A stretch of DNA of 27,284 nt from Verrucomicrobiales bacterium. Lineage in GTDB: Bacteria > Verrucomicrobiota > Verrucomicrobiia > Verrucomicrobiales > SLCJ01. The translations under genes and the position numbers were made by a program. Position 1 is the stretch's first letter. Each line of letters starts with the position of its first letter. Below, in pieces: positions 7,456 to 22,253 of the stretch. The stretch spans positions 1-27,284 of the forward strand of contig JBJTQJ010000095.1 in the NCBI GenBank assembly GCA_046075565.1, written 5' to 3'. The notes below the pieces were generated by a model, which saw nothing but the letters and a program-made list of their open reading frames with translations, was not told the origin of the DNA and did no database searches.

Positions 7456-7593
7456 CGGACGAGGGGCGGAAAGATCCGATCAGAATGCGCGGATGCAAGC
7501 CCGCATTTGGGAGATTTCCGCTGTGCCGGAGATACTGAGGTGTCGGCTTTTCCCGGTGAAATTTCCGCCACCCGCTCGACGTAAGCTGAGGTG

Positions 7594-8553
7594 ATGGCAA
7601 TCGGAATCCGATGTCTTCTAACGGCAAGCGTCCTCGGACTGGCCGCCAATACCACAGCCGGGGAAGCGGTGGCCGGAAGAACGCTGGCGTGGGAAAAAGG
7701 AGAAACTTCCCTCGCCCTCACCAACAACGGCAAGGTCGTTTGGCGACTGGTCCATGACCCGGAGCAACCGAAATCCTACTTTCATCCGCTCGCGACCATC
7801 GATGGCAAAGTCCTGACCGCCTTCGAGCCGGACGATCACCGCTGGCACCGCGGGCTCTGGTGGTCGTGGAAATACATCAACGGCCTCAACTACTGGGAAG
7901 AAGATCCGCAAACGGGCAAAAGTCAGGGCTTGACCCCGGTCACGCGGGCGGAAGTGCTGCCCTCACCGGATTCTTCCGCGCGGGTTCGCCTCGCTCTCGA
8001 CTACCAACCGCCGGGCCAGACCACTTTGCTCAAGGAAAAACGCGAACTGCATGTGCACGCGCCCGACGCGGAGGGCACCTATGTCATCGATTGGACCAGC
8101 ACTTTCACGGCGGCGGATGCACCGGTGAAACTGGATCGGACATTACCTCCCCACTAAGGCGGACCGGAATATGGCGGCTACGCCGGCTTATCCCTCCGGA
8201 TGGCCAAAGGACTCGACGGCTACACCTTCCGGACGCCTGCGGGAGAAACCAATCCTGCCGCCAGCCATGGCAAGACCAGCCCTTGGGTTGATCTCGCCGA
8301 TGCCCAATCGGGGATCGCCATTCTTGATCATCCCTCGAATCCCCGTCATCCTCCGCCATGGTATTTGCATTCGAACAAGACGATGCTGTTTTTCAGTCCC
8401 TCGCCATTGTTCAACGAAACCATCGAACTCGCCCCCCAAGAATCGATTTCCTTCCGCTACCAAATCATCGTCCACTCCGTCGGACTCACTCCAGAACGAA
8501 TCGACAATGAGTGGCGGAAATTCTCCCCAAACCAACCCGTCAAACAACCATGA
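7594..8553 (+). pseudogene. Secreted DUF6807/PmoA-family beta-sandwich protein interrupted by one in-frame TAA (8155-8157)
   Basis: Signal peptide, then PKSYFHPL, PDDHRWHRGLWW, NYWE. The frame continues through the stop: ...DRTLPPH*GGPEYGGYAGLSLRMAKG...GIAILDHPSNPRHPPPW... to TGA 8553. Track ORFs 7591..8157 and 8200..8553 share a frame. A real nonsense mutation cannot be told apart from a sequence error. Confidence 0.75.
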
Positions 8554-9392
8554 AAATCGGCTGCTTCGCTCTCATCCAACCCTTCTCGCCCATGCGGCGT
8601 CAATTCGAACTCATCCGTGAACTCGGTTTCGATTACGCGGATCTGACCGACAACCACGATGGCGCAACCCTCGGCACGGAATACGGGTTTTCCGCCTCGT
8701 TCAGCCTCGATTCGCACCCAGCGACCATACTCGATATGGTCAAAGAGTTCGGTCTCACCCTGACGAGTGTCTGCGCGCATGCGAATCTGCTCGATCCAAC
8801 GGCTCCCGATCGATATGGAACAGCGGAGATCATCAAGGCGATCAAACTCGCCCACTTTCTCGGGGTCAAACAGGTCATCACCACCGAAGGCGATCCTAAA
8901 ACGCATTTCGGCCATCATCTGAGCGAAGACCAGCGTTTGTTCAGCATTCGCGAAAAGCTTCACGAGCCGATCCGCTGGGCGGAGAATTTCGGCATCGAAC
9001 TTCTGCTCGAACCCCACGGCATTCTCACCGACACCGTCGCTGGCATGAGCAAAATCCTCGATGCCCTCGGCCATGAAAAGACCGTCGGTGTGAATCTCGA
9101 TACCGGCAACTCCTGGCTCGGCGGCGGGGATCCACTGGAGTTTGTCAAAGTCTTCGGAAGCCGCATCAAACACGTGCACTGGAAAGACATGCCCGCCGAA
9201 TGGCTGCCGAAACGCGGCACCCAATTCGGATGCGGCATGGGTTTGATTCCGCTCGGCGATGGCATCGTCGGGATCGAAGCGATTGTCAAAGAGCTGCTCG
9301 CCATCGGATTCGACGGACCCACCACCCTCGAAATTGCCGGTGAGGAAGCCGTCAAAACATCCGCCGCACGTCTCCGCGCCTGGTCCACATGA
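8550..9392 (+). CDS. Sugar phosphate isomerase/epimerase, xylose-isomerase-like TIM barrel (AP_endonuc_2)
   Basis: ATG 8550 overlaps the upstream stop (ATGA). Metal ligand motifs LLEPH, NLDTGN, HVHWKD, TLE. Confidence 0.88.
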   Translation: MKIGCFALIQPFSPMRRQFELIRELGFDYADLTDNHDGATLGTEYGFSASFSLDSHPATILDMVKEFGLTLTSVCAHANLLDPTAPDRYGTAEIIKAIKLAHFLGVKQVITTEGDPKTHFGHHLSEDQRLFSIREKLHEPIRWAENFGIELLLEPHGILTDTVAGMSKILDALGHEKTVGVNLDTGNSWLGGGDPLEFVKVFGSRIKHVHWKDMPAEWLPKRGTQFGCGMGLIPLGDGIVGIEAIVKELLAIGFDGPTTLEIAGEEAVKTSAARLRAWST

Positions 9393-10705
9393 AAACCTCC
9401 TCCTCCCCTACCCGCCGCGGCTTTCTCGCCAGCACCCTCGCCGCCGCCATCGCCCCGCAGTTTATTCCATAGCGGCTTCTCGGCGCCGATGCACCGAGCA
9501 ACCAGATCCAGCTCGGTCATATTGGAACCGGCGGACAGGGCAACGGTCTTCTGAGGAACTTCATGGCGGCGGGTGGATCCACGAGTGTGGCCATTGCCGA
9601 TCCTTTTCTCGAGCGCCGGCAAAGGGCCGGAGCATCGGTGAAGGAGAAACAAGGACACGAACCGAAACTCTACGCAGATTTCCGGGAACTGCTCGCCGAT
9701 AAATCCATTGACGCCGTGATCATCGCCACGCCCGATCACTGGCATGTGCCCGCGGGACTCGCCGCCGTGCGCGCGGGCAAGGATGTGTATATCGAGAAGC
9801 CGCTCGGCTACACATTGAATCAGAACCGCGCCATGCTCGAAGCGGTGAAAAAGCACAATCGCATTTTCCAATACGGGACCCAGCAACGCTCCAGTTCCAT
9901 CATCAAACGCGGTGTCGAACTTGTGCTCAATGGTAAAATTGGCGAACTCCAGCGCATCGAAGCTTGGTGTCCCGGAGGAGCAAGTGGCGGCTCGCTCGAG
10001 GAGATTCCCGTGCCAGAAGGTCTCGACTACGAACTCTACATCGGCCCTGCACCGATGAAACCCTGCACGAAGGACCGCATCACCAGCCAAGGGTCGTGGT
10101 ATTGCTCCGACTATGCGATCGGATTCATCGCCGGATGGGGAGCGCATCCTCTGGATATTGCCATCTGGGGACAAAGCTACGATCAGAAAGGCCCGGTCCG
10201 TTTCCGCGGCACCGGTGAGTTCCCCACCCTGGACGCTCTCTTCAACACTTGCGCATCCTGGAATGTGGAAATCCAATTCCCGGATCTGCCGATGCGTTTC
10301 TTGAGCGAAAACCACGCGAAGGAAGTGGTTGGGAAATACCGGAAAAACTGGGAGGACAATGGAACCACCTTCTTCGGTTCGAACGGCGGGGTCAGCCTGA
10401 GCCGCGGCAGTTTCGATGCCAGCGACCCGGATATGCTCCGTCAGCGTGAACCCGAAGGGGATCGCCGTGTGCTCTATCGCCCGAATTATTACGCGTCCTT
10501 CATTGAATCCGTGCGCGAACGCAGCCCGTCCGTCGCGCCCATCGAGGATGCCGTTCGTTCGGATGCCCTCAGCCACCTTTCCCTGCTCGCCATTCAATCG
10601 GGCAAGGAAGTCGTCTGGGATCCGAAAGCCTATCGCATCGAATCGCCCGCGGAATTGAATGGGAAGATGGGTTGCGAGGTCCGGGGCTCGTGGGAGCAAG
10701 CGTGA
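9389..10705 (+). pseudogene. Tat-exported Gfo/Idh/MocA oxidoreductase interrupted by an in-frame TAG at codon 28 (9470-9472)
   Basis: From ATG 9389 (ATGA overlap): [62 protein letters not shown]..., in frame with track ORF 9563..10705 (ATPDHWH, YIEKPL, QYGTQQRS, GWGAHPLD). Twin-arginine TRRGFL and Rossmann GTGGQG lie upstream of 9563. Confidence 0.78.
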
Positions 10706-11171: not shown

Positions 11172-11978
11172 GTGCCCGTCTTCCTGCTCGACCAAAAAGT
11201 CATCGTGATTGTCGGTGGCACCACCGGCCTCGGTCTTTCCGCAGCCCACGCGGTATTGGCTGCCGGGGCCGCGGGTGTTGTGGTCACGGGGCGAAATCCC
11301 GAGAGTGCGGACGCCGCCCTCTCCAGCCTCGGCGAAAAGGCGGTCGCCCACATCGGAGACGCCACCAGCCCGGAGCACGCGGAGGATGCCATCCGACTGG
11401 CGGTCGGGCGATTCGGACGGTTCGACGGGCTTTATCATGTGGCAGGCGGCAGTGGTCGGCGCAGGGGGGATGGTCCGCTCCACGAGGTCACGGATGATGG
11501 CATCGGCTTCACCCTCGATCTGAACCTTCACTCCCTCATTCTCTCCAATCGGGCGGCAGTACAACATTTCCTCGCGACGGGCACAGGCGGCAGCATCCTC
11601 AACATGGGTTCGGTGCTGGGCTGGTCGCCTTCACCTCGTTTCTTCTCTACTCATGTTTATGCAGCGGCGAAGTCCGCGATCATCGGATTCACCAAATCCA
11701 TCGCCGCTTGTTATGCGTCCAAGGGGATTCGCGCGAATGTTATTGCGCCCGCCCTCGTGGAAACCCCGATGGCCAAACGCGCCGCCGGAGATGATGATAT
11801 CCTCTCGTTTATCCGGACGAAACAACCGCTTGATGGAGGCCGCATCGGAAAACCAAACGATCTCGACGCCGCCGTCGTTTATTTCCTCTCCGATGGTTCG
11901 GCTTTCACCACCGGACAAGTGCTCGCGGTCGATGGCGGATGGACGGTTTCCGAAGGTCAAATTCCCGCCGGCCTATGA
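11172..11978 (+). CDS. Short-chain dehydrogenase/reductase (SDR)
   Basis: VGGTTGLG cofactor motif, NMGS, catalytic YAAAK, IRANVIAP, TGQVLAVDGG. Start uncertain (GTG 11172 or TTG 11160). Confidence 0.92.
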   Translation: MPVFLLDQKVIVIVGGTTGLGLSAAHAVLAAGAAGVVVTGRNPESADAALSSLGEKAVAHIGDATSPEHAEDAIRLAVGRFGRFDGLYHVAGGSGRRRGDGPLHEVTDDGIGFTLDLNLHSLILSNRAAVQHFLATGTGGSILNMGSVLGWSPSPRFFSTHVYAAAKSAIIGFTKSIAACYASKGIRANVIAPALVETPMAKRAAGDDDILSFIRTKQPLDGGRIGKPNDLDAAVVYFLSDGSAFTTGQVLAVDGGWTVSEGQIPAGL

Positions 11979-12868
11979 GACACGTGGTTGGCATCGACAT
12001 CGGAGGCACCCGCATCAAGGCACTGCTGGTTGATGAAACCGGCGCCGTGCTGGCCGAAACCATCGAGCCGACCGGCGATGACGGAACACCCGGCTGGAAA
12101 GAGCACGTGCGCGCGGCGGCGGCAAAAGCCGAACGCATGTGCGGACTAAAAGCGGACGCCTATGGCGTGGCGGCTCCGGGGATTGCCGCACGAGATGGTC
12201 TTTCCATCAGCTTGATGCCCGGCCGACTGCGCGGACTGGAAGGGCACACCTGGCAGGATTGCTTCGGTTCGGCCCTGCCGGTGCCGGTGATGAATGATGC
12301 ACAAGCCGCGCTGCTCGGGGAGATCTGGCTCGGTGCGGGACATCACTCCGGAAATGCCATTCTCCTGACCCTCGGCACGGGGGTCGGCGGAGCGGTGATG
12401 TTGGATGGTCGCTTGCTCCACGGTCACATTGGGCGCGCCGGCCACCTAGGGCATGTTAGCCTCGATCCCGGAGGTCCCCTGGACATTGTCGGCACACCGG
12501 GTTCGCTGGAGGATGCGATAGGCAATCATTCCGTGGCCCGACGGACGGGCGGGCGCTTCGCCGACACGAACGCCTTGGTGCGGGCTGTCGAAGCCGGGGA
12601 GCCCTGGGCAATCGAAGCCTGGCATACTTCGGTGCGCGCACTGGCGGCGGCGATTGCCGGGTTCATCAACGTGCTCGATCCCGAATGTGTGATCCTCGGC
12701 GGCGGCATTTCCCAGGTGGGTCCGACGCTTTTTGATCCCCTGCGGCAGCACCTTGAACAATTCGAATGGCGTCCCGACGGACATCACGTCCAGATCCTTC
12801 CCGCCTCGCTCGGCGAGCGGGCCGGAGCCCTCGGGGCCGCCCGCGCCGCTCTCGATTCCATCCAATGA
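11975..12868 (+). CDS. ROK family sugar kinase (no HTH)
   Basis: ATG 11975 overlaps the SDR stop. GIDIGGT, MNDAQAALLGE, TLGTGVGG, GRAGHLGH, ILGGGI. Confidence 0.92.
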   Translation: MRHVVGIDIGGTRIKALLVDETGAVLAETIEPTGDDGTPGWKEHVRAAAAKAERMCGLKADAYGVAAPGIAARDGLSISLMPGRLRGLEGHTWQDCFGSALPVPVMNDAQAALLGEIWLGAGHHSGNAILLTLGTGVGGAVMLDGRLLHGHIGRAGHLGHVSLDPGGPLDIVGTPGSLEDAIGNHSVARRTGGRFADTNALVRAVEAGEPWAIEAWHTSVRALAAAIAGFINVLDPECVILGGGISQVGPTLFDPLRQHLEQFEWRPDGHHVQILPASLGERAGALGAARAALDSIQ

Positions 12869-12872
12869 TTCC

Positions 12873-13667
12873 ATGACACCAGCACTCGACTACCTAACAA
12901 AATCACGTGGTCTCATCGAGACCGTGGAAAAGCAGATCCCGCTCATCGAAAAGGCGGCGGACATCTTCTCATCCACCATTCTCGCCGGACGTATGGTCCA
13001 TGTCTTCGGCTCCGGCCATTCGCGGATCATGACCGAAGAAATGTGGCCGCGTTATGGTTCCTACCCGGGATGGAATCCGATTGTCGAACTCTCTCTTTCC
13101 TTCCACAACCTGGTGGTCGGGGCGAACGGGCAACGCCAGGCGATGTTCCTGGAGAATGTCTCCGGTCTCGCCGACCGCATCCTGCGGAATTTCGATCTGT
13201 CCGGAATCGACAGCTCCCTCATCATCTCCTCCAGCGGATGCAACGTCGTGCCCATCGAAATGGCCGAGCAGTTCCAGAAGCGTGGCATCAAGGTGGTGGC
13301 CATCGTCAGCAGCGCGCATTTGGAAAGCTCCAAATCGAAACGGGCCGACGGCAAAAAGCTGACCGACTTCGCCGACATCGTGCTCGACACAGGAGCGCCC
13401 CCGGGGGACGCGATGGTCATGGTTCCCGGACTCGACACGCCGGTCGCCCCCGGCTCGACGGTTGGCGGATGCCTGCTCGTCAACGCCATCAAGGCGGAAA
13501 CAGCGGCCCGGCTCACCGCCGCCGGTCAAGCACCGAAGGTTCTCAGTGGCGCGAATGTCGTCGGCGCGGATCGTGCGGTCGAACTTTTCGAGTCCGCGTA
13601 CGATGAACACGCCCACCGCATGGCCCGCCTCTATGCCAATGTGGGGCTCCCCACCCCGATGCAATAA
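12873..13667 (+). CDS. SIS-domain phosphosugar isomerase-like protein
   Basis: ATG 12873 (MTPALDYL); HVFGSGHS, IISSSGCN, ADIVLDTGAPPGDA, PGSTV. Confidence 0.88.
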   Translation: MTPALDYLTKSRGLIETVEKQIPLIEKAADIFSSTILAGRMVHVFGSGHSRIMTEEMWPRYGSYPGWNPIVELSLSFHNLVVGANGQRQAMFLENVSGLADRILRNFDLSGIDSSLIISSSGCNVVPIEMAEQFQKRGIKVVAIVSSAHLESSKSKRADGKKLTDFADIVLDTGAPPGDAMVMVPGLDTPVAPGSTVGGCLLVNAIKAETAARLTAAGQAPKVLSGANVVGADRAVELFESAYDEHAHRMARLYANVGLPTPMQ

Positions 13668-13674
13668 TCCTAAA

Positions 13675-13811
13675 AACCACGAATAAACACGAATTTACAC
13701 GAAAAAATTGATAATCGGAGATTTATGAAAAAAGCTTCACTCACCCGCAAGATGAATTAGGTTTTTTCCATAACTCTGAAAGTTCGTGCCCATTCGTGTC
13801 TATTGGTGGTT
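13675..13811. repeat. AT-rich 137-bp hairpin/MITE-like element with 29-bp terminal inverted repeats built from 10-bp CACGAA units
   Basis: Left 13675-13703 AACCACGAATAAACACGAATTTACACGAA vs reverse complement of right 13783-13811 AACCACCAATAGACACGAATGGGCACGAA (24/29). The interior also pairs (TTATGAAAAAAGCT with AGGTTTTTTCCATAA). Confidence 0.75.
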
Positions 13812-13889
13812 CCATTTTCCTTTCAAGGATAATACTAATTTCTTCACCGTAATTTCCCCTGCCCTCGATCATTTCCCATCTCCCCTCTC

Positions 13890-14942
13890 ATGCAAACCAA
13901 CCCTCTCCGCACCTCCGTCATTGGCAGCTACTCCTTTCCAGGGTGGCTGGAATTCGCGACCTCGCACCTCGATCAATTCGGTTCAAGCGATCGCGCCGAA
14001 GCCCAGGACGACGCGGTCATCACGGCGATCTATGATCAACTCGCGGCCGGACTGGATGTCATCACGGATGGCGAACAAACCCGCCTCGACTTCAATCTTT
14101 CCTTCTACGGTTACCTCAAAGGCATCGAACTGGAATCCGATTCGCCACGCCGGTTCGGACCGCCCGCGCACGACCAACGGGGCAAACACCAGGTCGTGGA
14201 CACCATCACCGCTCCCAAGGGGCTCGGCGTGGTCGAGGAATACCAGAGGCTGGTGCGCATCATGCAACCCTGTGTGACCGATCATCCGGTCACGCTCAAG
14301 GCGAGTGTGCCCGGTCCTTATACCTTGAGCGGCCGACTCCTTCCCAACGCCCATTATCCCGACCGTCTGGCTCTGACCGAAGCCCTCCTGCCGATAGTCC
14401 GCGCCGAACTCGAAGCCCTGGTTGCCGCCGGATGCCAGGAGATCAGCGTCGATGAGCCATCGATGAGTTGTTATGCCTTCCGCGAGGATACGAAACGATT
14501 CGTGGACATCTTCAACCGCACGGTCGAGAGCGTGTTTGGAAAAACCCGTATCTGCACCCACCTGTGTTTCGGCAACTTCAAAGGTCATGCCGTGGGTTAC
14601 CGGCGTATTGCCCCGATGTTCCCGGATTTCCTCGATTTCAAATGTGATGAAATGCACGTGGAAATGGCCAGCCGTGAGTTCGCGGAAATCGAACTAATCT
14701 CCCGTATCGCCGAGCGGATGGATGTGGCCGTTGGCATCGTCGATGTGAAAAGCTACTATATCGAATCGCCGGAAGACATCGCCCACCGCGTGCGCCTCTG
14801 CCTCGAACACGCGCCCGCCGAACGACTGGTCTTCGCACCCGATTGCGGACTCAGCCAGACCGCCCGTTGGGCCGCGAAACGCAAGCTGGCGTCGATGGTC
14901 GAGGGCACCCGCATGGTGAAAAAGGATCTCGGTCTGCCATGA
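13890..14942 (+). CDS. Cobalamin-independent methionine synthase II family protein (catalytic domain only; Zn thiol alkyltransferase)
   Basis: 350 aa; SVIGSY, GLDVITDGEQTR, PGPYTL, SVDEP, Zn ligands THLCFGN (HxC), HVEMA (E) and PDCGL (C). Lacks the N-terminal half of full-length MetE. Confidence 0.9.
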   Translation: MQTNPLRTSVIGSYSFPGWLEFATSHLDQFGSSDRAEAQDDAVITAIYDQLAAGLDVITDGEQTRLDFNLSFYGYLKGIELESDSPRRFGPPAHDQRGKHQVVDTITAPKGLGVVEEYQRLVRIMQPCVTDHPVTLKASVPGPYTLSGRLLPNAHYPDRLALTEALLPIVRAELEALVAAGCQEISVDEPSMSCYAFREDTKRFVDIFNRTVESVFGKTRICTHLCFGNFKGHAVGYRRIAPMFPDFLDFKCDEMHVEMASREFAEIELISRIAERMDVAVGIVDVKSYYIESPEDIAHRVRLCLEHAPAERLVFAPDCGLSQTARWAAKRKLASMVEGTRMVKKDLGLP

Positions 14943-15793
14943 ACCCGGCCTTCCAAAAGGACGAACTCCTGCTCGCGGACATTGCCCAAGCCCGCGCGGA
15001 AGGCCGCCCTCGTCTTTGGTGGTTTGGTCAAAGCGGATTCCTGATGGTCACCCGTGAAGCGACCATCCTTTTCGATCCTTACCTCTCGGATTCGCTTACG
15101 AATAAATATGCGACCACCGACAAACCGCACACGCGGATCACGGAACGGGTTATCGCTCCGGAGTTGCTGACCGGGATCGACATCATCACCAGTTCGCACA
15201 ATCACACCGACCATCTGGATGCGGAAACCCTCCTTCCGCTCTTCCAAGCCAATCCGCAGGCGAAACTTCTCATTCCCCGCGCCAACCGGGCCTTCGTGCT
15301 GGACCGACTCGGTCCGGTCGAGGACCGTATTGAAGAAATCGACGCGGGTGAAACACGGCATATCGGAAACATCGAGTGGACGGGCATTCCCGCCGCCCAC
15401 AATACCGTCGAACGAGATGCGAACGGCTGCTGCCGGTTCCTCGGTTTCGTGGCCAAGATCGGAGGATTCTGCATCTACCACAGCGGCGACACGCTCCTGC
15501 ACGACGGTCTTGTTCCCGCTCTCGCACCTCACGCGCCGGATATCGCGTTGGTTCCGATCAATGGCAATCTTCCCGAACGCCGTGTCTCGGGCAATCTCGA
15601 CGGCAAAGAAGCCGCCGGTCTGGCGCATGAAATCGGAGCAGGACTCGCCATTCCCCACCACTTCGACATGTTCGACTTCAACACCGCTTCGCCCGGTCTT
15701 TTTGTCGTCGAGTGCAAACGGCACGGCCAAGCCTACCATGTCCTGCGGAACGGCGAGGGTTTGGATCTTCTCTCCCTTCCGGAGAATCCATGA
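14939..15793 (+). CDS. MBL-fold metallo-hydrolase (UlaG-like lactonase)
   Basis: ATG 14939 overlaps the upstream stop. WFGQSGF, DPYLS, SHNHTDHLD (HxHxDH), PAAH, YHSGDT, PINGN, IPHHFDMF. Confidence 0.9.
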   Translation: MNPAFQKDELLLADIAQARAEGRPRLWWFGQSGFLMVTREATILFDPYLSDSLTNKYATTDKPHTRITERVIAPELLTGIDIITSSHNHTDHLDAETLLPLFQANPQAKLLIPRANRAFVLDRLGPVEDRIEEIDAGETRHIGNIEWTGIPAAHNTVERDANGCCRFLGFVAKIGGFCIYHSGDTLLHDGLVPALAPHAPDIALVPINGNLPERRVSGNLDGKEAAGLAHEIGAGLAIPHHFDMFDFNTASPGLFVVECKRHGQAYHVLRNGEGLDLLSLPENP

Positions 15794-15827
15794 ATAACCG
15801 ACCGCAGACCTCCTCCCCTCTCCCATC

Positions 15828-16901
15828 ATGAATCGCCCTTGGAAAATCGCCGGCATCAATTTCGACCACATGCACATGGGTGACTTGTTGCGGATGGTTC
15901 ATGACCACCCGAACGCGGAGATCGTCGGCATTTGTGATGAATCCCCCGAGCGCATGGCCGCTGCCATCGCGAATTTCCAGATTCCACCGGAGAAGGTCTA
16001 TACCGATTACCACACCTGTCTTTCCGAAAGCCAGCCGGATCTGGTTATCCTCTGTCCGGCCACCGCCGAACATGGCGAGTGGACCCTGAGGATTGCCCCC
16101 TATGGCACGCATATTCTAATGGAGAAGCCCTTTGCCGCGAATCTGGCCGAGGCCGATGCGATGATCGCGGCCATGGCCGGAACGGGCAAAGAGTTGATCA
16201 TCAATTGGCCGTTGCGTTGGTATCCCTCGCACGCCACCGCGAAACGTCTGCTGGACGAGGGCAAAATCGGCGAGGTCATCGAAGTTCATTACTACGATGG
16301 AAACCGGGGACCACTCTGGCATACCGCCGACAAGATCGAAACCACCCCGACCGCGGAAGCGAAAGCCGCCAGTTGGTTCTACCGCAAGGAATCCGGCGGC
16401 GGTTCGCTTCTTGATTACCTCGGTTACGGGGCGACCCTCGGCACCTGGTTCATGGATGGACGGGCACCGATCGAAATGACGGCGATGGTCGACCAACCCG
16501 AGGGACTTGAAGTGGATGAACATGCCATCGTGATCGCGCGATACGCGACTGGGCTCTCGAAATTCGAAACTCGCTGGGGAACATTCACCGATCCATGGAC
16601 CCATCAACCGCAACCGAAATGCGGATTTGTCATCGTCGGCACCGAGGGCACGCTGTCGAGTTATGATCTGGAACCGACCGTGCGCCTGCAAACACGGGAA
16701 TGTCCCGCCGGCGTCGAGATTCCTTCGGACAAGCTCGTCCACCCGCACCACAATCCCATCGCCTATGTGCTCGAGTGTCTGGAAAATGGCCGGCAAGTGG
16801 ACGGCCCGCTTTCACCCGCCATCTCGCGTATTGGACAACGCATCGTCGATGCGGCCGTATCCAGTGTGCGCGAAAAACGTACGGTCCAACTGCCCGCCTG
16901 A
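15828..16901 (+). CDS. Gfo/Idh/MocA family oxidoreductase (cytoplasmic)
   Basis: ILMEKPFA, INWPLRW, GGGSLLDYLGY; variant nucleotide loop GINFDHMH. Confidence 0.88.
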   Translation: MNRPWKIAGINFDHMHMGDLLRMVHDHPNAEIVGICDESPERMAAAIANFQIPPEKVYTDYHTCLSESQPDLVILCPATAEHGEWTLRIAPYGTHILMEKPFAANLAEADAMIAAMAGTGKELIINWPLRWYPSHATAKRLLDEGKIGEVIEVHYYDGNRGPLWHTADKIETTPTAEAKAASWFYRKESGGGSLLDYLGYGATLGTWFMDGRAPIEMTAMVDQPEGLEVDEHAIVIARYATGLSKFETRWGTFTDPWTHQPQPKCGFVIVGTEGTLSSYDLEPTVRLQTRECPAGVEIPSDKLVHPHHNPIAYVLECLENGRQVDGPLSPAISRIGQRIVDAAVSSVREKRTVQLPA

Positions 16902-16913
16902 AATCCATCCGCC

Positions 16914-17990
16914 ATGTCAGAAAACTACGATCTCAAGTCGGCGGCCAAAACAACCATGGCGGCCCCGGTTTTTCAGTATCAACCGCCGGCGCCAAAAGGC
17001 CCGGTCCCGAAAATCGGTCTGATTGGTTGCGGTGGCATTACCTCCCACCATCTGCAAGCCTACCGGGATGCTGGATGGGAGGTTGCGGCATTTTTTGATC
17101 CCAACAGCGAGGCTGCGGAAAAGCGCCGAGCGGAGTATTTCCCCAATGCCAGCTTACGCGCCACTGCCGATGAGATCTTCAAGGATCCCAGTATCGGAGT
17201 CGTGGATATCGCCACCCATCCAAAAGCACGCGAAGAATTGATCCTGCGTGCCACCGATGCGGGCAAGCACATCCTCAGCCAGAAGCCATTCGCCGTCGAT
17301 CTCCCGACCGCCGAACGTTTGGCTGCGCATGCCAGAGCCCGGGGCGTGCGCCTTGCCGTGAATCAGAATGGCCGATGGGCACCGTATTTCGCCTACATGC
17401 GGCAAGCGGTGAAGTCGGGTTTGATTGGTGATATCGGCTCCGTGCATATGGTGCTGAATTGGGATCACACCTGGACGGCTGGCACTCCGTTCGCGGACAT
17501 CCATCATCTCATGTTCTATGACTTTGGCATCCACTGGTTTGATGCCGCGAGAACGCTAATGCACGGTCAGACCGCGACGTCGGTTTCGGCCCGGCTTGCG
17601 CGTTTCCCCAATCAACCGATTGAACCTCCCCTGCTCGCCTCCGCTACCGTCAATTTCCCAAAAGGCATGGCCACCCTGGCCTTCAACGGTTGCAGTCGAT
17701 TCGGTGCGAACGAGTCCTGCACGGTCATTGGCAGCAAAGGCACGCTGTCCGCATCCGGTCCGCTGTGTGGCATCCCGAAGGTTGCAATTCACACCACCGA
17801 AGGCGAAGCGGTTGCCGAACTGGAAGGAGCATGGTTTCCCGATGGTTTCCGCGGGTGTATGGGTGAATTGCTGCTCGCCATTGAGGAAAACCGCGAACCC
17901 GAGAACTCCGCCGCCGACAATATCCGGTCGATGGCCATAGTGCTCGCCGCCATGCGCTCCGCCGATGAAGATCGTCCGGTTCTGCTGTGA
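16914..17990 (+). CDS. Gfo/Idh/MocA family oxidoreductase (cytoplasmic)
   Basis: GLIGCGGI, DIATHP, ILSQKPFA, VNQNGRW, DFGIHWFD. Confidence 0.9.
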   Translation: MSENYDLKSAAKTTMAAPVFQYQPPAPKGPVPKIGLIGCGGITSHHLQAYRDAGWEVAAFFDPNSEAAEKRRAEYFPNASLRATADEIFKDPSIGVVDIATHPKAREELILRATDAGKHILSQKPFAVDLPTAERLAAHARARGVRLAVNQNGRWAPYFAYMRQAVKSGLIGDIGSVHMVLNWDHTWTAGTPFADIHHLMFYDFGIHWFDAARTLMHGQTATSVSARLARFPNQPIEPPLLASATVNFPKGMATLAFNGCSRFGANESCTVIGSKGTLSASGPLCGIPKVAIHTTEGEAVAELEGAWFPDGFRGCMGELLLAIEENREPENSAADNIRSMAIVLAAMRSADEDRPVLL

Positions 17991-18021: not shown

Positions 18022-19410
18022 TTATTTCGCGGCGGCTTTGAGTTCGCTGAATCGGGCACGCAATTCGCCGAGTTTGGCGGCGTGCTCGGGATTCCGCGCG
18101 AGGTCGTTCAACTCGCCGGGGTCATTGCCGAGGTCGAAGAGTTGTTCAAGCATTTGCTCCGGCCAGAACATGTATTTCCAGTCCTTGCGCACCAAAGCCT
18201 CGGACGCGGGAATGAAATCCGCATTGTTCAGCATCGGGTGTTCGTAATAAAACTCGGTGCGCCATTCCGGTTTCTCCGCTCCGAGATAAAGCGCCGCGAT
18301 ATCCCGGCCCTGCATGACCCCGGGCACGGGAATGCCGGCGGCGGTGAGGATGGTCGGGGCCAGATCCACATTGAGCGTGAAATTCGCATCGGTGGTTCCG
18401 CGTTTGCCCTTGGGCATACGGGGGTCGCGGATGATGAGCGGCACGCGGATGCTTTCCTGATGGGGATACCATTTGTCGGCCAATCCGTGTTCACCGTGGA
18501 AGTAGCCGTTGTCGGTAGTGAAAATGATCAGCGTTTTGTCGAGCACCCCTTGTTTTTCCAGTTCATCAAGAACGTGGCCGCAAACGGCGTCGTTTTCGGT
18601 GACCAACCGGTAGTAGTTCTTCATCATCCGCTGGTATTTCTCGGGAGTATCGAAGCGCCAGGTCCAACGGTGGCGGCCCTCGTTTTTCTCGGTAAAGAAA
18701 TCCGGCATCTTCTTCCATGCCTCATCGGTGGCGGTCGGTGGAACGGGGATGGTCACGTCCTCATAGAGCTTCATGCTCTCCGGCTGCGGAAGATACTGTT
18801 CAGGATTGCCATCCTCGGCATGCGGAGTGAAAAACGCGACATTGAGGTAGAACGGCTTTTCCTGCGGCCGGGTGCGCAGGAACTCAAGGGCGTCCTTCTC
18901 GTTGCGGGCGGTTGAGTGGATTTTCCCTCCATCTTTGGTGGGATACCAGTGCCGGCCATTGTAAAATCTACCGAAGTCGAACTTATCGGCCGGTTCCTTG
19001 CCGTTGTGCCATTTGCCGACGTGGCCAGTGTAATAACCATTGGCGCGAAGCAAAGCGGGAAGGCTGAGGTCCCAAGGTGTTGCCCATTCCTTGAACCCCC
19101 GGCAACCGTGGCGAGACATCCATTGCCCGGTGTGCAGACTCGCGCGACTGACCCCGCAGATCGACGTGGTCACGCAGTTGTGGGTGAAGCGCACGCTCTC
19201 ACCAGCCAAGCGATCAAGACGAGGGGTCTTCACCACCGGATTGCCGTCCACTCCGAGGGTGTCGTGACGCCAGTCATCGGCGTAAAGGACGACAACGTTC
19301 AACGGTTTGGCCGCCAAGGTGAGGGCGGAACAGAAAAGCAAAAGAAGTGAAATTGGCAGTTTCATGGGTCTTGAGAGATTCGGGCTGGTCTCATTGCCGG
19401 AGATGTTCAT
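18022..19410 (-). CDS. Secreted Cys-type (formylglycine-dependent S1) sulfatase
   Basis: [20 protein letters not shown] (CxxxR), [41 protein letters not shown] 19410 overlaps the GH78 stop; the signal peptide suggests an alternative start at 19365 ([18 protein letters not shown]). Confidence 0.93.
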
Positions 19411-22253
19411 TCTTCGACGGTAAACTTATAGCGTCCGCTGCCAATCCTCATGGATTGCAGACCATCTTTGGTGCCCAACACCTCGATTCCCTCCGCTTCA
19501 CCAAGGGGTTTGCCAGATTCGGTGGTCTTGCCAGCGGGCAGATAAATGGTCGCAGTGGTGTCGGCCGGGATATCAATTTCGAATTTATACCCCTTTTTCT
19601 CAACCGCCCCCTGATTCACGCGTTGCCAATTGCACACAATGGATCCGCGCGCGGACTGATGCCAGCAGTTGGCTCCCATCAAGTCGGGGAACATTTGCGG
19701 ACGGATGATGATGCGGTCGAAGGCGATGGCATCATCAGCCGGCTGGATGCCACCAAGGTGGTGGTAGAACCATCCCAAAATGGAGCCGAACATCGGGTGG
19801 TTGTGAGAAAATGTGTTGTCACTTTCCTTCCAGGTTTCCCATAACGTGGTGGCGTCGTTTTCCAACATCCAACCCCACGACGGGAAAGTCTTCCGCGTCG
19901 CGAGTTTAAAGGCAAGATCCGGGCGACCCCGTTCGGTTAGCTCGTCCAGCAGGAAGCGCGTGGCAAAGATGCCGGTGGTGAGACGTGGTCCGTCCTCCGG
20001 AGCGGTGAGGTTGGCCACCAGGTTTTCGAAGACCGCCTTTTGGGCTGCTTCGGGAGCGGCACCAAACCCGAGGGCGAGCACTTGCTCGGACTGTTCCCCA
20101 CCGCCGACTTTGCCGGAGTCTTTGTCGAGAAATGCCTTGGCCCAAGCGGCCGCCGATTCATCGGCCATTTTCGTGAAACGCGTCGCGTCGTCGTTCTTCC
20201 CGATAAGCTGGGAAAGTCTCGCCATGCGACGGGCCGCATCGATGAACATCGGGGTGATGACGGAAGGGCCGCGGGCTTTGGCCAGAGCTTCATGATCACC
20301 CAAGCCTTGGGTCACGAGGCCATCAACGCGTTTGGATGCCTCGAGGTCGAACCAGCGCACGGCAGCGGGAAGCTGCTCTTCGACGATGCGGAGATCTCCA
20401 TAGTGACGGTAGTGTAGTTCGATGAGCAACGGATGGACCATGGCCCACCCCACCCCGCAATACTGAATCCCGACGAAGGGCGCGGTATCGGTAAAGTTGC
20501 CATCCGGCCGGGCGGCCTCGGACCAGTTGCGGATCGTATTGGCGTAGTAGCCCTGCATGTCAAAACTCATGAGGAAGGCATCGGCCGTCGGGACGATGTC
20601 GCCGCCATAGGAAAACCTCTCGCGGTGCGGGCAATCCGAGGAAACGCTCATCACATTGCTCCGGAAGGTGTTGATGGTCATTTCCTCAATTCGATTCAGT
20701 GTACCATTCCCGGGGCCGATGTCTCCTGCCTGCCGGATGTCGGATTGCAAGCGGATGCCCTTGATGTCCGCGAGCGCCGGTGGTTTCTCTACCCCGGTGA
20801 TCTCCATGAAACGAAATGCGCGAAACGTAAAATCGGGGATGTATACCTCTTCTCCCCCTCCCTTTGTGATATAGACATCCTGTTGCCAAGCGATGGGAGG
20901 TGCTCCGGGCCCGCCTTTGGAAATTTCTTTGCCGTTCTCATCCTTCCTTGTGCCCTTAATTTGACCGCAGACACTCGTCATGGGGTTGAGCGTGCCGTCC
21001 TTATTCAGGATTTCCCCGTAACGAAGAAGGACGCGGGTTCCCGCCGGCAGCGAAAACCGGATTTCCGGAAGACCGGTGAAGTTTTTCCCGAAGTCCACGA
21101 TGTGAACATCCGGTTTCGGCGACTGGATCGAAATCGCGGGGAGCACTTCGGTAGCCCGCACCGGTGGCATGTCGAGAATGGGATGGAGCGGGTCGAGGGC
21201 GTGCGGGGTAACCCGCGCATCCCGCCATTTGGAGTCATCAAAACCCGGGGCATCCCATCCGGCCTCCTCCAAATGTGCGTCGCGTTCTTCACCAAGGTAG
21301 ATGCTGTTGCGCAAAGTAGGGCTCGAGCCGACGCGCCAACTAGGTCCGGTCGTGATGGTGGTCTTTGTTCCATCCGGATGCTCTACGACCAGAAGCGCAA
21401 TACCCCGCGGACGTCCGACGGGAAGTTCAACGCGGATATTCCGCGCGCCCCACATCCGCAAAGGCAAAGGATTATACCATCCGTTGCCAAGCGCCAAACC
21501 GAGGCAGTTTGCTCCCTCTTTCAGTTCTGTCGTGACGTCGTGCGATCGGAAGAGAATGCGTTTTTCGAAATTGGTCCATGGAGGATCAAGCGAAACATCC
21601 TTGAGCCGTTTGCCATTCAGGCTCGGGATGCCGTAACCAAGCCCGGCGACATGCAGCCAGGCCCGGGTGACGGGTTTTTCCAACTTGAATTCTTTCCGGA
21701 AACGCGGCGCGGGATCCTCCTTGTAGAAATCCTCGTCACGTTCGGGGTTGGATTTGCCGTCATCGAGCCAACGCGCTCCCTGCCAATCGGCGGGATCTGC
21801 TGGTGCAACCACCATCTGAGCTGGTATGCTCCAACCGGAACTGCAGTTCTTCTTGTCCCAGGCGCGGACTTTCCAGAAACATGTATCGCCAGCCGCCAAC
21901 GGTTTCCCGCGGTAAAGAACCACGGGAGAGCGCGTGGTCGGTTGGCGTCCGGAATCCCAGAGATCGCCTTTGTCCTTTTCGAGTTCCTCCAAGTTCCTGG
22001 AGACGAGGATTTGCCACTCGTGTTGAGCAAGCCCCCGTTCGAGCGTCTCAATATTCCACGTGAAAGCGGGTTGTTTGGAAACGACGGCCAAGGTCCCTTT
22101 CTGCCCGTCAGCGGAGGAAACTCCGATATCGAACTTGGTTTGCGCGGACAAAACCGAAACGTGACAAACGAGCATACAAAGGGCCAGCAAAGACCGGCAC
22201 GAGGAGAATGAAAATTGGGACACGGTGGAAAATTGTGTGGATTGGATTAACAA
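19407..22253 (-). CDS. Glycoside hydrolase family 78 (alpha-L-rhamnosidase-like), secreted
   Basis: N-terminal GDLWDSG/WKVRAWD domain, [27 protein letters not shown], catalytic region [30 protein letters not shown]. Exact start uncertain. Confidence 0.92.

Follow-up and report, generated by a model that had tools for sequence, protein, structure and literature searches.

A conserved sugar-gene cluster built around a single-barrel MetE-like enzyme, and its possible role in the demethylation of sugars

Why should a relative of methionine synthase be encoded in the midst of a run of sugar-metabolism genes? The question is raised by contig JBJTQJ010000095.1 (C95 in our numbering), a 27,284-nucleotide stretch of Verrucomicrobiales DNA that we refer to as the window, and which belongs to a 3.9-Mb genome rated 100% complete whose closest relatives by protein are Luteolibacter-type Verrucomicrobiia. 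In an initial annotation, made from the letters alone, seven genes had been placed on one strand here, namely those for a short-chain dehydrogenase/reductase (SDR), a ROK sugar kinase, a SIS protein, a MetE-like Zn enzyme, a metallo-beta-lactamase (MBL)-fold hydrolase and two Gfo/Idh/MocA oxidoreductases; all seven open reading frames were located as described on the plus strand, and Pfam agrees on their families. The ATGA overlaps that had been reported between the SDR and ROK genes (11975-11978) and between the MetE-like and MBL genes (14939-14942) are both present. We found that this cluster is real, conserved and uncharacterised. As to what it does, the reading that we prefer, and to which we give an even chance, is that a five-gene unit breaks down a methylated sugar, the MetE-like enzyme moving the methyl group to homocysteine so as to yield methionine and an unmasked sugar acid.

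The MetE-like gene (13890-14942, plus strand; PF01717, Meth_synt_2) encodes a single barrel of 350 residues, and the earlier description of its product as a catalytic domain only is borne out by a score of 21.6 bits against Meth_synt_1 (PF08267), for which the cut-off is 27. Its Zn site, likewise described as intact, consists of H224, C226, E258 and C319, which align to H641, C643, E665 and C726 of MetE. In an alignment to Citrobacter MetE, S13, E62 and D188 of the MetE-like protein correspond to S433, E484 and D599 of the homocysteine pocket; the roles of the Zn- and homocysteine-binding residues are those given for MetE in the accessible part of PMC7857596. All four ligands and all three pocket residues are invariant in 81 of 81 orthologues. 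Since the counterparts of S13 and E62 in XecA and EtnE are N and R/K, the pocket appears to be of the homocysteine type and not of the coenzyme M (CoM) type. Further invariant residues lie around it (H94-D-Q-R97, C194, K231 and R238) and suggest a defined second substrate; C194, near the pocket, is invariant in the main clade and is not kept in a Chloroflexota sister group. The predicted structure is a single barrel (pLDDT 95) whose closest fold is MesD (3RPD, TM score 0.83). Identity to the reference members of the family ranges from 23 to 32%, and in a quick tree from which MesA, MesB and MesC were absent the protein falls in a clade of its own, outside those of MetE, split MetE, MesD and XecA/EtnE. 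It scores under every NCBIfam methionine-synthase cut-off, with 55 bits against 930 for TIGR01371, 191 against 406 for PRK04326, 123 against 392 for the MesD model NF006589, and 86 against 258 for PRK00957, which we take to stand for MesA. The family itself has many closely similar members: of 8000 candidates that were scored, all 8000 passed E 1e-20, and identity falls to 48% or less in the full-length clusters that come next. A plasmid collection held no close member, its best match being at 31.6%.

How does this enzyme stand to its characterised relatives? MesD (PDB 3RPD; PMC7857596) is the best structural match, a single barrel of about 345 residues with the same Zn ligands and homocysteine pocket. 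Unlike MesD, however, the MetE-like gene lies in a sugar-pathway context. A search for MesX (PF08908) gave no match in the 100%-complete genome, but none in any control genome either, and no MesX gene is adjacent in the window. Its product shares 27.5% identity and 115 bits with the A. baumannii MesD encoded beside DUF1852, our stand-in for ACIAD3523, and the accessible part of PMC7857596 sets membership of MesD at 390 or more BLAST bits to ACIAD3523. With full-length MetE and the archaeal split MetE it shares the catalytic barrel and all seven functional residues, but not the folate-binding half, which is found neither in the protein nor in the genome: the genome's sole PF08267 match is the MetE-like gene itself, below the cut-off, in a search whose controls matched in 9 genomes. 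It differs from MesA in being hosted by bacteria rather than methanogens and in falling below the PRK00957 cut-off, and from MesB and MesC in that the Wood-Ljungdahl corrinoid iron-sulfur protein was not found in the genome (no match to the subunit family PF03599, for which controls gave matches), the sequences DET0516 and MA0053 lying outside this comparison. XecA of Xanthobacter Py2 and EtnE of Nocardioides JS614 likewise are Zn-thiol alkyltransferases that consist of a single barrel and serve catabolism, with SDR and flavoprotein genes next to their own, yet they share 25-28% identity with the MetE-like protein, fall in a separate clade with a support of 100 and have the N and R/K residues mentioned above. 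The clade would work like a MetE-fold homocysteine methyltransferase and, by the tests run, stands outside MetE, split MetE, MesA-D and XecA. The earlier suggestion that the enzyme strips a methyl or alkyl group with an activated thiol thus survives in part: transfer of an alkyl or methyl group to a thiol activated by Zn is the best reading, whereas a XecA-like role with CoM, or in opening an epoxide or anhydro ring, is disfavoured by the homocysteine-type pocket.

Other members of this fold were seen along the way. A second single-barrel MetE-like gene is present in the source genome (L081:4962-5972, minus strand; G000:C129); its product is 25% identical, keeps the Zn ligands and homocysteine pocket, and is encoded beside AP_endonuc-like, Gfo-like and enolase-superfamily genes followed by a 979-residue glycosidase-like open reading frame (labels other than enolase and MetE-like being read from the sequence). 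Further single-barrel genes with intact pockets lie on a Pseudoroseomonas plasmid (L103) and an Aminobacter plasmid (L105), in catabolic operons that also encode dioxygenases, CoA transferase and transporters, which suggests that catabolic pathways have drawn on the MetE fold repeatedly. In three loci (L036:4049-5284, L053:5820-7052 and L147:8405-9505) the SIS gene has an inserted neighbour of the URO-D family, whose fold superfamily also includes MetE.

If the enzyme serves a sugar pathway, its neighbours should recur. A lack of conservation beside ROK, SIS, SDR and MBL genes had been named beforehand as the outcome that would speak against a shared pathway; what we found is that homologues are conserved beside these genes across phyla, the five-gene unit showing 66-85% identity. 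Among the best 80 of 556 related loci, many of them on short contigs, MBL genes were present in 61, SIS in 54, SDR in 38 and ROK in 35, compared with 18 and 19 for the Gfo/Idh/MocA genes A and B, 15 for PTE and 13 for a PF12831 flavoprotein. MBL, SIS, SDR and ROK are therefore core together with the MetE-like gene, and the two Gfo/Idh/MocA genes are accessory. The MBL gene is directly downstream of the MetE-like gene in 52 of 61 loci, and SIS is directly upstream in 33 of 55; 12 of the 80 loci show no core partner in the stretch covered. Where a locus lacked SIS, the genome encoded it elsewhere at 69% identity or more in 18 of 21 cases, in a 39-41% form in 2, and not at all in 1. Hosts belong to the Verrucomicrobiota, Planctomycetota, Bacteroidota, Chloroflexota, Acidobacteriota, Latescibacterota, Poribacteria and Hydrogenedentota, and cultured carriers include Flexithrix dorotheae, Nibrella saemangeumensis and Brevifollis gellanilyticus. 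An even sample of 301 Verrucomicrobiia genomes, in which the enzyme was counted at 69% identity or more and SIS at 64% or more, contained the MetE-like gene in 38, MBL in 40 and SIS in 41 (a 56% SIS in G094 was left out); all 38 carriers of the MetE-like gene had MBL and 37 had SIS.

Could the enzyme nevertheless be the cell's methionine synthase? This is unlikely because the source genome has an intact full-length MetH and because, in a search of 50 of the 80 carrier genomes, MetH was matched in 48 and lay over the cut-off in 42. The presence of MetH also makes a back-up methionine role less likely, although it lowers that chance without removing it, since MesD often coexists with MetH (75% of cases, according to the accessible part of PMC7857596). 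The source genome has no full MetE. As originally remarked, the window's open reading frames include no methionine, folate or corrinoid gene besides the MetE-like one, the Pfam scan having covered 11 open reading frames and a GH78 gene.

What, then, might the partners do? The SDR (11172-11978, plus strand, GTG start; PF13561/PF00106) has its best NCBIfam match in the glucose 1-dehydrogenase subfamily PRK07231 (171 bits, cut-off 215) and conserves Y163-x3-K167; it is predicted to be a C1 dehydrogenase that makes a lactone. The ROK kinase (11975-12868, plus strand; PF00480) falls under all ROK equivalog cut-offs, and its best matches include N-acetylmannosamine kinase. A ketohexokinase-family gene (PF25270) takes its place between SDR and SIS in five loci (L002:1626-2792, L041:6104-7261, L121, L122 and L124).

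The SIS protein (12873-13667, plus strand; SIS_2) belongs to the UPF0309/PRK02947 family, with 266 bits against a PRK02947 cut-off of 135, and its only solved relatives are BH3325 (3cvj) and NagS (SCO4393; 9eol). According to the accessible part of PMC12680351, NagS dehydrates N-acetylglucosamine 6-phosphate (GlcNAc-6P), a reaction that yields a C2=C3 furanose phosphate and depends on H53, R64, E94 and D179. The corresponding H49, R60, E94 and D172 are kept in 56-57 of 57 aligned rows, as is the phosphate-binding serine S119, with S121 kept in 51 of 57. The resemblance to NagS is distant (94 bits): S91 is replaced by M or L, there is no dmdR1 context, and the orthologues described for Streptomycetaceae in the same part of that source share at least 58.7% identity and lie beside dmdR1. 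Where the initial annotation had spoken of an isomerase and a lactonase, the families hold, and the functions were guesses from family that were not observed; the SIS protein in particular, given its family match and the retained essential residues, should rather be taken for an eliminating enzyme of the NagS family, predicted to remove the C2-H and C3-OH of a sugar phosphate. In L153-L157 of the Bacteroidota sample the SIS protein that accompanies a ROK kinase is of a second UPF0309 subtype, and one of these pairs has a sugar porter, an amidohydrolase and a beta-propeller lactonase as neighbours. The MBL-fold hydrolase (14939-15793, plus strand; UPF0173/UlaG-like, PF12706, Lactamase_B_2/3) conserves the metal motif H87-x-H89-x-D91-H92, and its UlaG matches are weak, with 34.8 bits against a cut-off of 306 for NF008688; it is a putative phospho-sugar lactonase coupled to the MetE-like gene.

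From the observed gene content, conservation, co-occurrence, residues and fold we infer each reaction of the route, as well as its substrate. The ROK kinase, or the ketohexokinase, would phosphorylate the sugar, the SIS enzyme would take off the C2-H and C3-OH to leave a 2,3-unsaturated furanose phosphate, and the SDR would oxidise C1 to give an unsaturated lactone. A C2 O-methyl group, if present, would by now sit in an enol ether derived from a 2-keto acid, whose quality as a leaving group resembles that of a phenol, and a Zn-thiolate could take its methyl; the MetE-like protein, predicted to act as a homocysteine S-methyltransferase on an intermediate of the sugar route, would pass this methyl to homocysteine and so make methionine. 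The MBL enzyme, or PTE in other lineages, would then open the lactone to a 2-keto-3-deoxy-aldonate phosphate for cleavage by a KDPG-type aldolase, and in lineages without the MetE-like gene the PF12831 flavoprotein may do the same job. The substrate that fits best is a 2-O-methyl aldose, a tentative choice that carries about half of the weight we place on a methylated sugar, with N- or S-methylated sugars taking the rest. It would fit because its methyl group should block normal aldose-ketose isomerisation, because elimination and oxidation should give an enol ether open to attack by a Zn-thiolate, and because the product would be a KDPG-type acid in its lactone form, with a shape much like that of UlaG's substrate. 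With 3-O-methyl sugars, an elimination like that known from MurQ or that of NagS should release methanol and leave a methyltransferase unneeded, and on this reasoning we give them a lower rank. N-acetyl and simple N-methyl sugars rank lower as well because they too would need no methyltransferase after elimination, and 6-deoxy methyl sugars would be a poor fit with a ROK kinase and with the phosphate serines of SIS. Taken as a whole, an oxygenase-free route for 2-O-methyl sugars, in which an activated enol ether yields its methyl as methionine and its carbon to the Entner-Doudoroff pathway, seems to us possible rather than probable.

The end of such a route may have left some traces. A KDPG-type aldolase is encoded in or beside nine loci (L063, L121, L122, L124, L142, L146 on the opposite strand, L167, L175 and L176), and the source genome has one elsewhere. 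In L121:5968-7593 and L122:5103-6698, both on the minus strand, the aldolase and PTE share one reading frame and are likely fused. As for the one-carbon unit, purU directly adjoins SIS or the MetE-like gene in five of 151 loci (L046, L087, L119, L123 and L126), which do not form one clade on the MetE-like tree and fall in at least two. PurU of E. coli is activated by methionine. In nicotine catabolism purU belongs to a demethylating operon (accessible part of PMC6214936). L142 carries a GbcA-like Rieske oxygenase gene (361 bits, cut-off 670) and L013 a haem N-demethylase-like gene.

Some lineages appear to complete the cluster in another way. Four Verrucomicrobiia genomes with SIS and without the MetE-like gene (G191, G306, G097 and G106) also lack MBL, and all have the arrangement SDR-ROK-SIS-flavoprotein-PTE. 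The flavoprotein (L037:8477-9844 and its relatives; PF12831) is highly conserved and marks this alternative form; in a search that scored five candidates per genome and left out a 50% match in G088, its orthologue was present in 8 of the 301 Verrucomicrobiia genomes, every one of which has SIS and 4 of which also have the MetE-like gene. All 41 Verrucomicrobiia genomes with SIS thus have either the MetE-like gene with MBL (37) or the flavoprotein (8), both being present in 4. Among 401 Bacteroidota genomes SIS was matched in 18, of which 10 had at least 68% identity; nine new ones had the MetE-like gene in six and the flavoprotein in three, and those three were without MetE-like and MBL orthologues. 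A metagenome scan for the flavoprotein gave 6 loci. Of the cultured carriers, F. dorotheae possesses both modules, while B. gellanilyticus and N. saemangeumensis are of the MetE type. In Chloroflexota, 25 of 291 genomes matched the MetE-like protein at E 1e-55, and 13 of the 20 regions examined hold its sister form (40-50% identity) in the same kind of cluster, the other seven being unrelated contexts. A strict rule that pairs the MetE-like gene with MBL and the flavoprotein with PTE was dropped, as some of these sister loci pair the MetE-like form with PTE. The best matches of PTE are phospho-furanose lactonases; since MBL and PTE both have relatives among the phospho-sugar lactonases, one seems able to stand in for the other. 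The MetE-like and flavoprotein steps may be either alternatives or neighbouring steps.

Against a methylated-sugar pathway weigh several observations. Many loci carry both the MetE-like and the flavoprotein module, which fits sequential steps too. Of the 13 Chloroflexota sister loci, 6 contain PTE and none MBL within the stretch covered, so that the pairing is not strict. Searches with the flavoprotein (PDB sequences, NCBIfam, ESM Atlas and fold comparison) returned generic FAD folds only, with a best TM score of about 0.45, and the literature searched gave no precedent for a flavin enzyme acting on a methyl ether, so that its equivalence to the MetE-like step is a tentative assumption. Homologues of NagS at about 30% identity are inactive on GlcNAc-6P in the accessible part of PMC12680351, which makes a different substrate probable here and leaves the SIS chemistry as a deduction from family. 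The gene purU is not in 146 of the 151 loci, although the source genome has it elsewhere, and it goes with genomes of the MetE type, not with those of the flavoprotein type, where oxidative demethylation would predict it. No glycosidase, transporter or regulator is conserved with the cluster in the relatives' loci, and single loci point different ways, with sialic-acid genes in L034, a nucleoside hydrolase and PfkB in L004, GH127 in L020, L080 and L125, and NagA-like and NagB-like genes in L127 and L142. One-carbon clues are sparse, and single neighbours elsewhere point to sialic acid, nucleosides, amino sugars or GH127 substrates. Finally, genomes and loci that are kin are not independent.

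Three other explanations have to be set beside the methylated sugar. Homocysteine or cysteine could be a recycled thiol cofactor, the enzyme adding it to an unsaturated sugar that comes from the SIS step, to an epoxide or to an aldehyde, with the SDR oxidising the adduct and MBL freeing the thiol, on the model of XecA-XecD/E-XecC or of the glyoxalase I/II cycles. The tight coupling of the MetE-like and MBL genes, the SDR and flavoprotein genes that accompany XecA and EtnE in their operons, the unsaturated sugar that a NagS-type reaction would produce and the extra invariant C194 near the pocket of the main clade all speak for it. We consider it somewhat unlikely all the same: the sister group does not keep C194 and swaps MBL for a PTE of the phospho-furanose lactonase type, a better fit to a sugar lactone than to a thioester, the linkage to purU indicates a one-carbon unit, and there is no CoM-type pocket. 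It is doubtful, too, that the pocket has been re-used for an amino-sugar acid such as a 2-amino-2-deoxy-aldonate phosphate, with Zn serving as the Lewis acid for a lyase, deaminase or hydrolase reaction of a thiol-free route from N-acyl amino sugars to KDPG. Such a route would account for the membership of SIS in the NagS family, which acts on N-acetylhexosamine 6-phosphates, for the N-acetylmannosamine kinase among the best ROK matches, for the linked KDPG aldolase, and for the sialic-acid, NagA-like and NagB-like neighbours and GntR-UTRA regulators of single loci; yet the His-Cys-Cys-Glu Zn site is of the thiol-activating type and unchanged, the NagS serine S91 has become M or L, distant NagS homologues are inactive on GlcNAc-6P, and purU is left unexplained.

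The remaining explanation, which we regard as improbable, is a core methionine synthase of a fifth kind, one that supplies methionine from an unspecified one-carbon donor and merely sits among sugar genes. In its favour, the protein retains all seven residues of the methionine synthases, it is closest in fold to MesD, which is itself found alongside MetH, a B12-independent back-up would be useful to a genome without full MetE, and the 12 loci lacking a core partner would be at home in this explanation. It fits poorly, however, with the near-perfect co-occurrence with SIS and MBL even where the genes are scattered, with the flavoprotein-module genomes that do without the MetE-like gene, with the lack of any linked met, folate or corrinoid gene except purU, and with the lack of a riboswitch in the window.

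The remaining parts of the locus can be described briefly. Downstream of the core lie the accessory Gfo/Idh/MocA oxidoreductase genes A (15828-16901, plus strand; PF01408) and B (16914-17990, plus strand; PF01408). The 222-bp gap between SIS and the MetE-like gene is filled by a hairpin-forming repeat of about 165 bp (13665-13832), REP/MITE-like and dispersed between genes, of which 16 other copies of at least 120 bp and 69-87% identity lie on 16 contigs of the genome; its RNA fold has a z-score of -5.5. At this position close relatives carry the flavoprotein gene, in the order SIS-flavoprotein-MetE (L001 and L002). We rejected the gap as a promoter or as the scar of a lost flavoprotein gene, the repeat being genome-wide and giving no useful match to the loci of close relatives. 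Rfam and tRNA scans of the window, hairpin repeat included, gave no match and no riboswitch, and a promoter and terminator scan gave counts no higher than chance. A sulfatase gene and a GH78 alpha-L-rhamnosidase-like gene (18022-22253, minus strand) converge on the cluster and are not conserved beside it in relatives; nor are the DUF6807, AP_endonuc_2 and Gfo/Idh/MocA genes (7591-10705, plus strand) that end 466 bp ahead of the SDR gene. In one Pyrinomonadaceae locus (L034) the full cluster lies in a sialic-acid-type setting, with a NanM-symporter fusion, a BNR sialidase-like gene, two DHDPS/NanA lyases, a GntR gene, a TonB receptor and a sulfatase.

What would a methyl-transferring sugar pathway add to those already known? 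The statement that no characterised pathway has this gene set still stands for the literature searched, whose coverage was thin for subscription journals and without supplements; there, too, methyl transfer from a sugar to homocysteine is not a step of sugar pathways. To the initial picture the present analysis adds the link to NagS, the alternative flavoprotein module and the links to purU and KDPG aldolase. The sugar O-demethylases described in the accessible parts of PMC6292453 and PMC12709175 are oxygenases, CYP236A acting on 6-O-methyl-galactose and FJS/PHYHD1 on 2'-O-methyl nucleosides; they likewise take off a blocking methyl so that the sugar can be catabolised, but they need oxygen and release formaldehyde, whereas the proposed route would use no oxygenase and keep the methyl as methionine. 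Closer in chemistry are the betaine- and S-methylmethionine:homocysteine methyltransferases, in which homocysteine also accepts the methyl of a methylated nutrient (accessible part of PMC7857596), although their donors are onium compounds and none was found in a sugar pathway. We assume here that they belong to a protein family different from that of the MetE-like enzyme.

Methylated sugars are hard for bacteria to break down, and they build up in surface waters (accessible parts of PMC6292453 and PMC12709175). If the proposal is true, polysaccharide-degrading bacteria would use methylated sugars and gain methionine without B12. Carbohydrate demethylation would then have a new route and the MetE fold a new reaction, with the flavoprotein module as a convergent substitute, spread over the PVC group, Bacteroidota, Chloroflexota, Acidobacteriota and candidate phyla. 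The findings bear on three uncharacterised families, namely the MetE-like clade, the UPF0309 SIS proteins outside Streptomyces and the PF12831 flavoprotein, and thousands of proteins now labelled 'methionine synthase' are probably mis-annotated.

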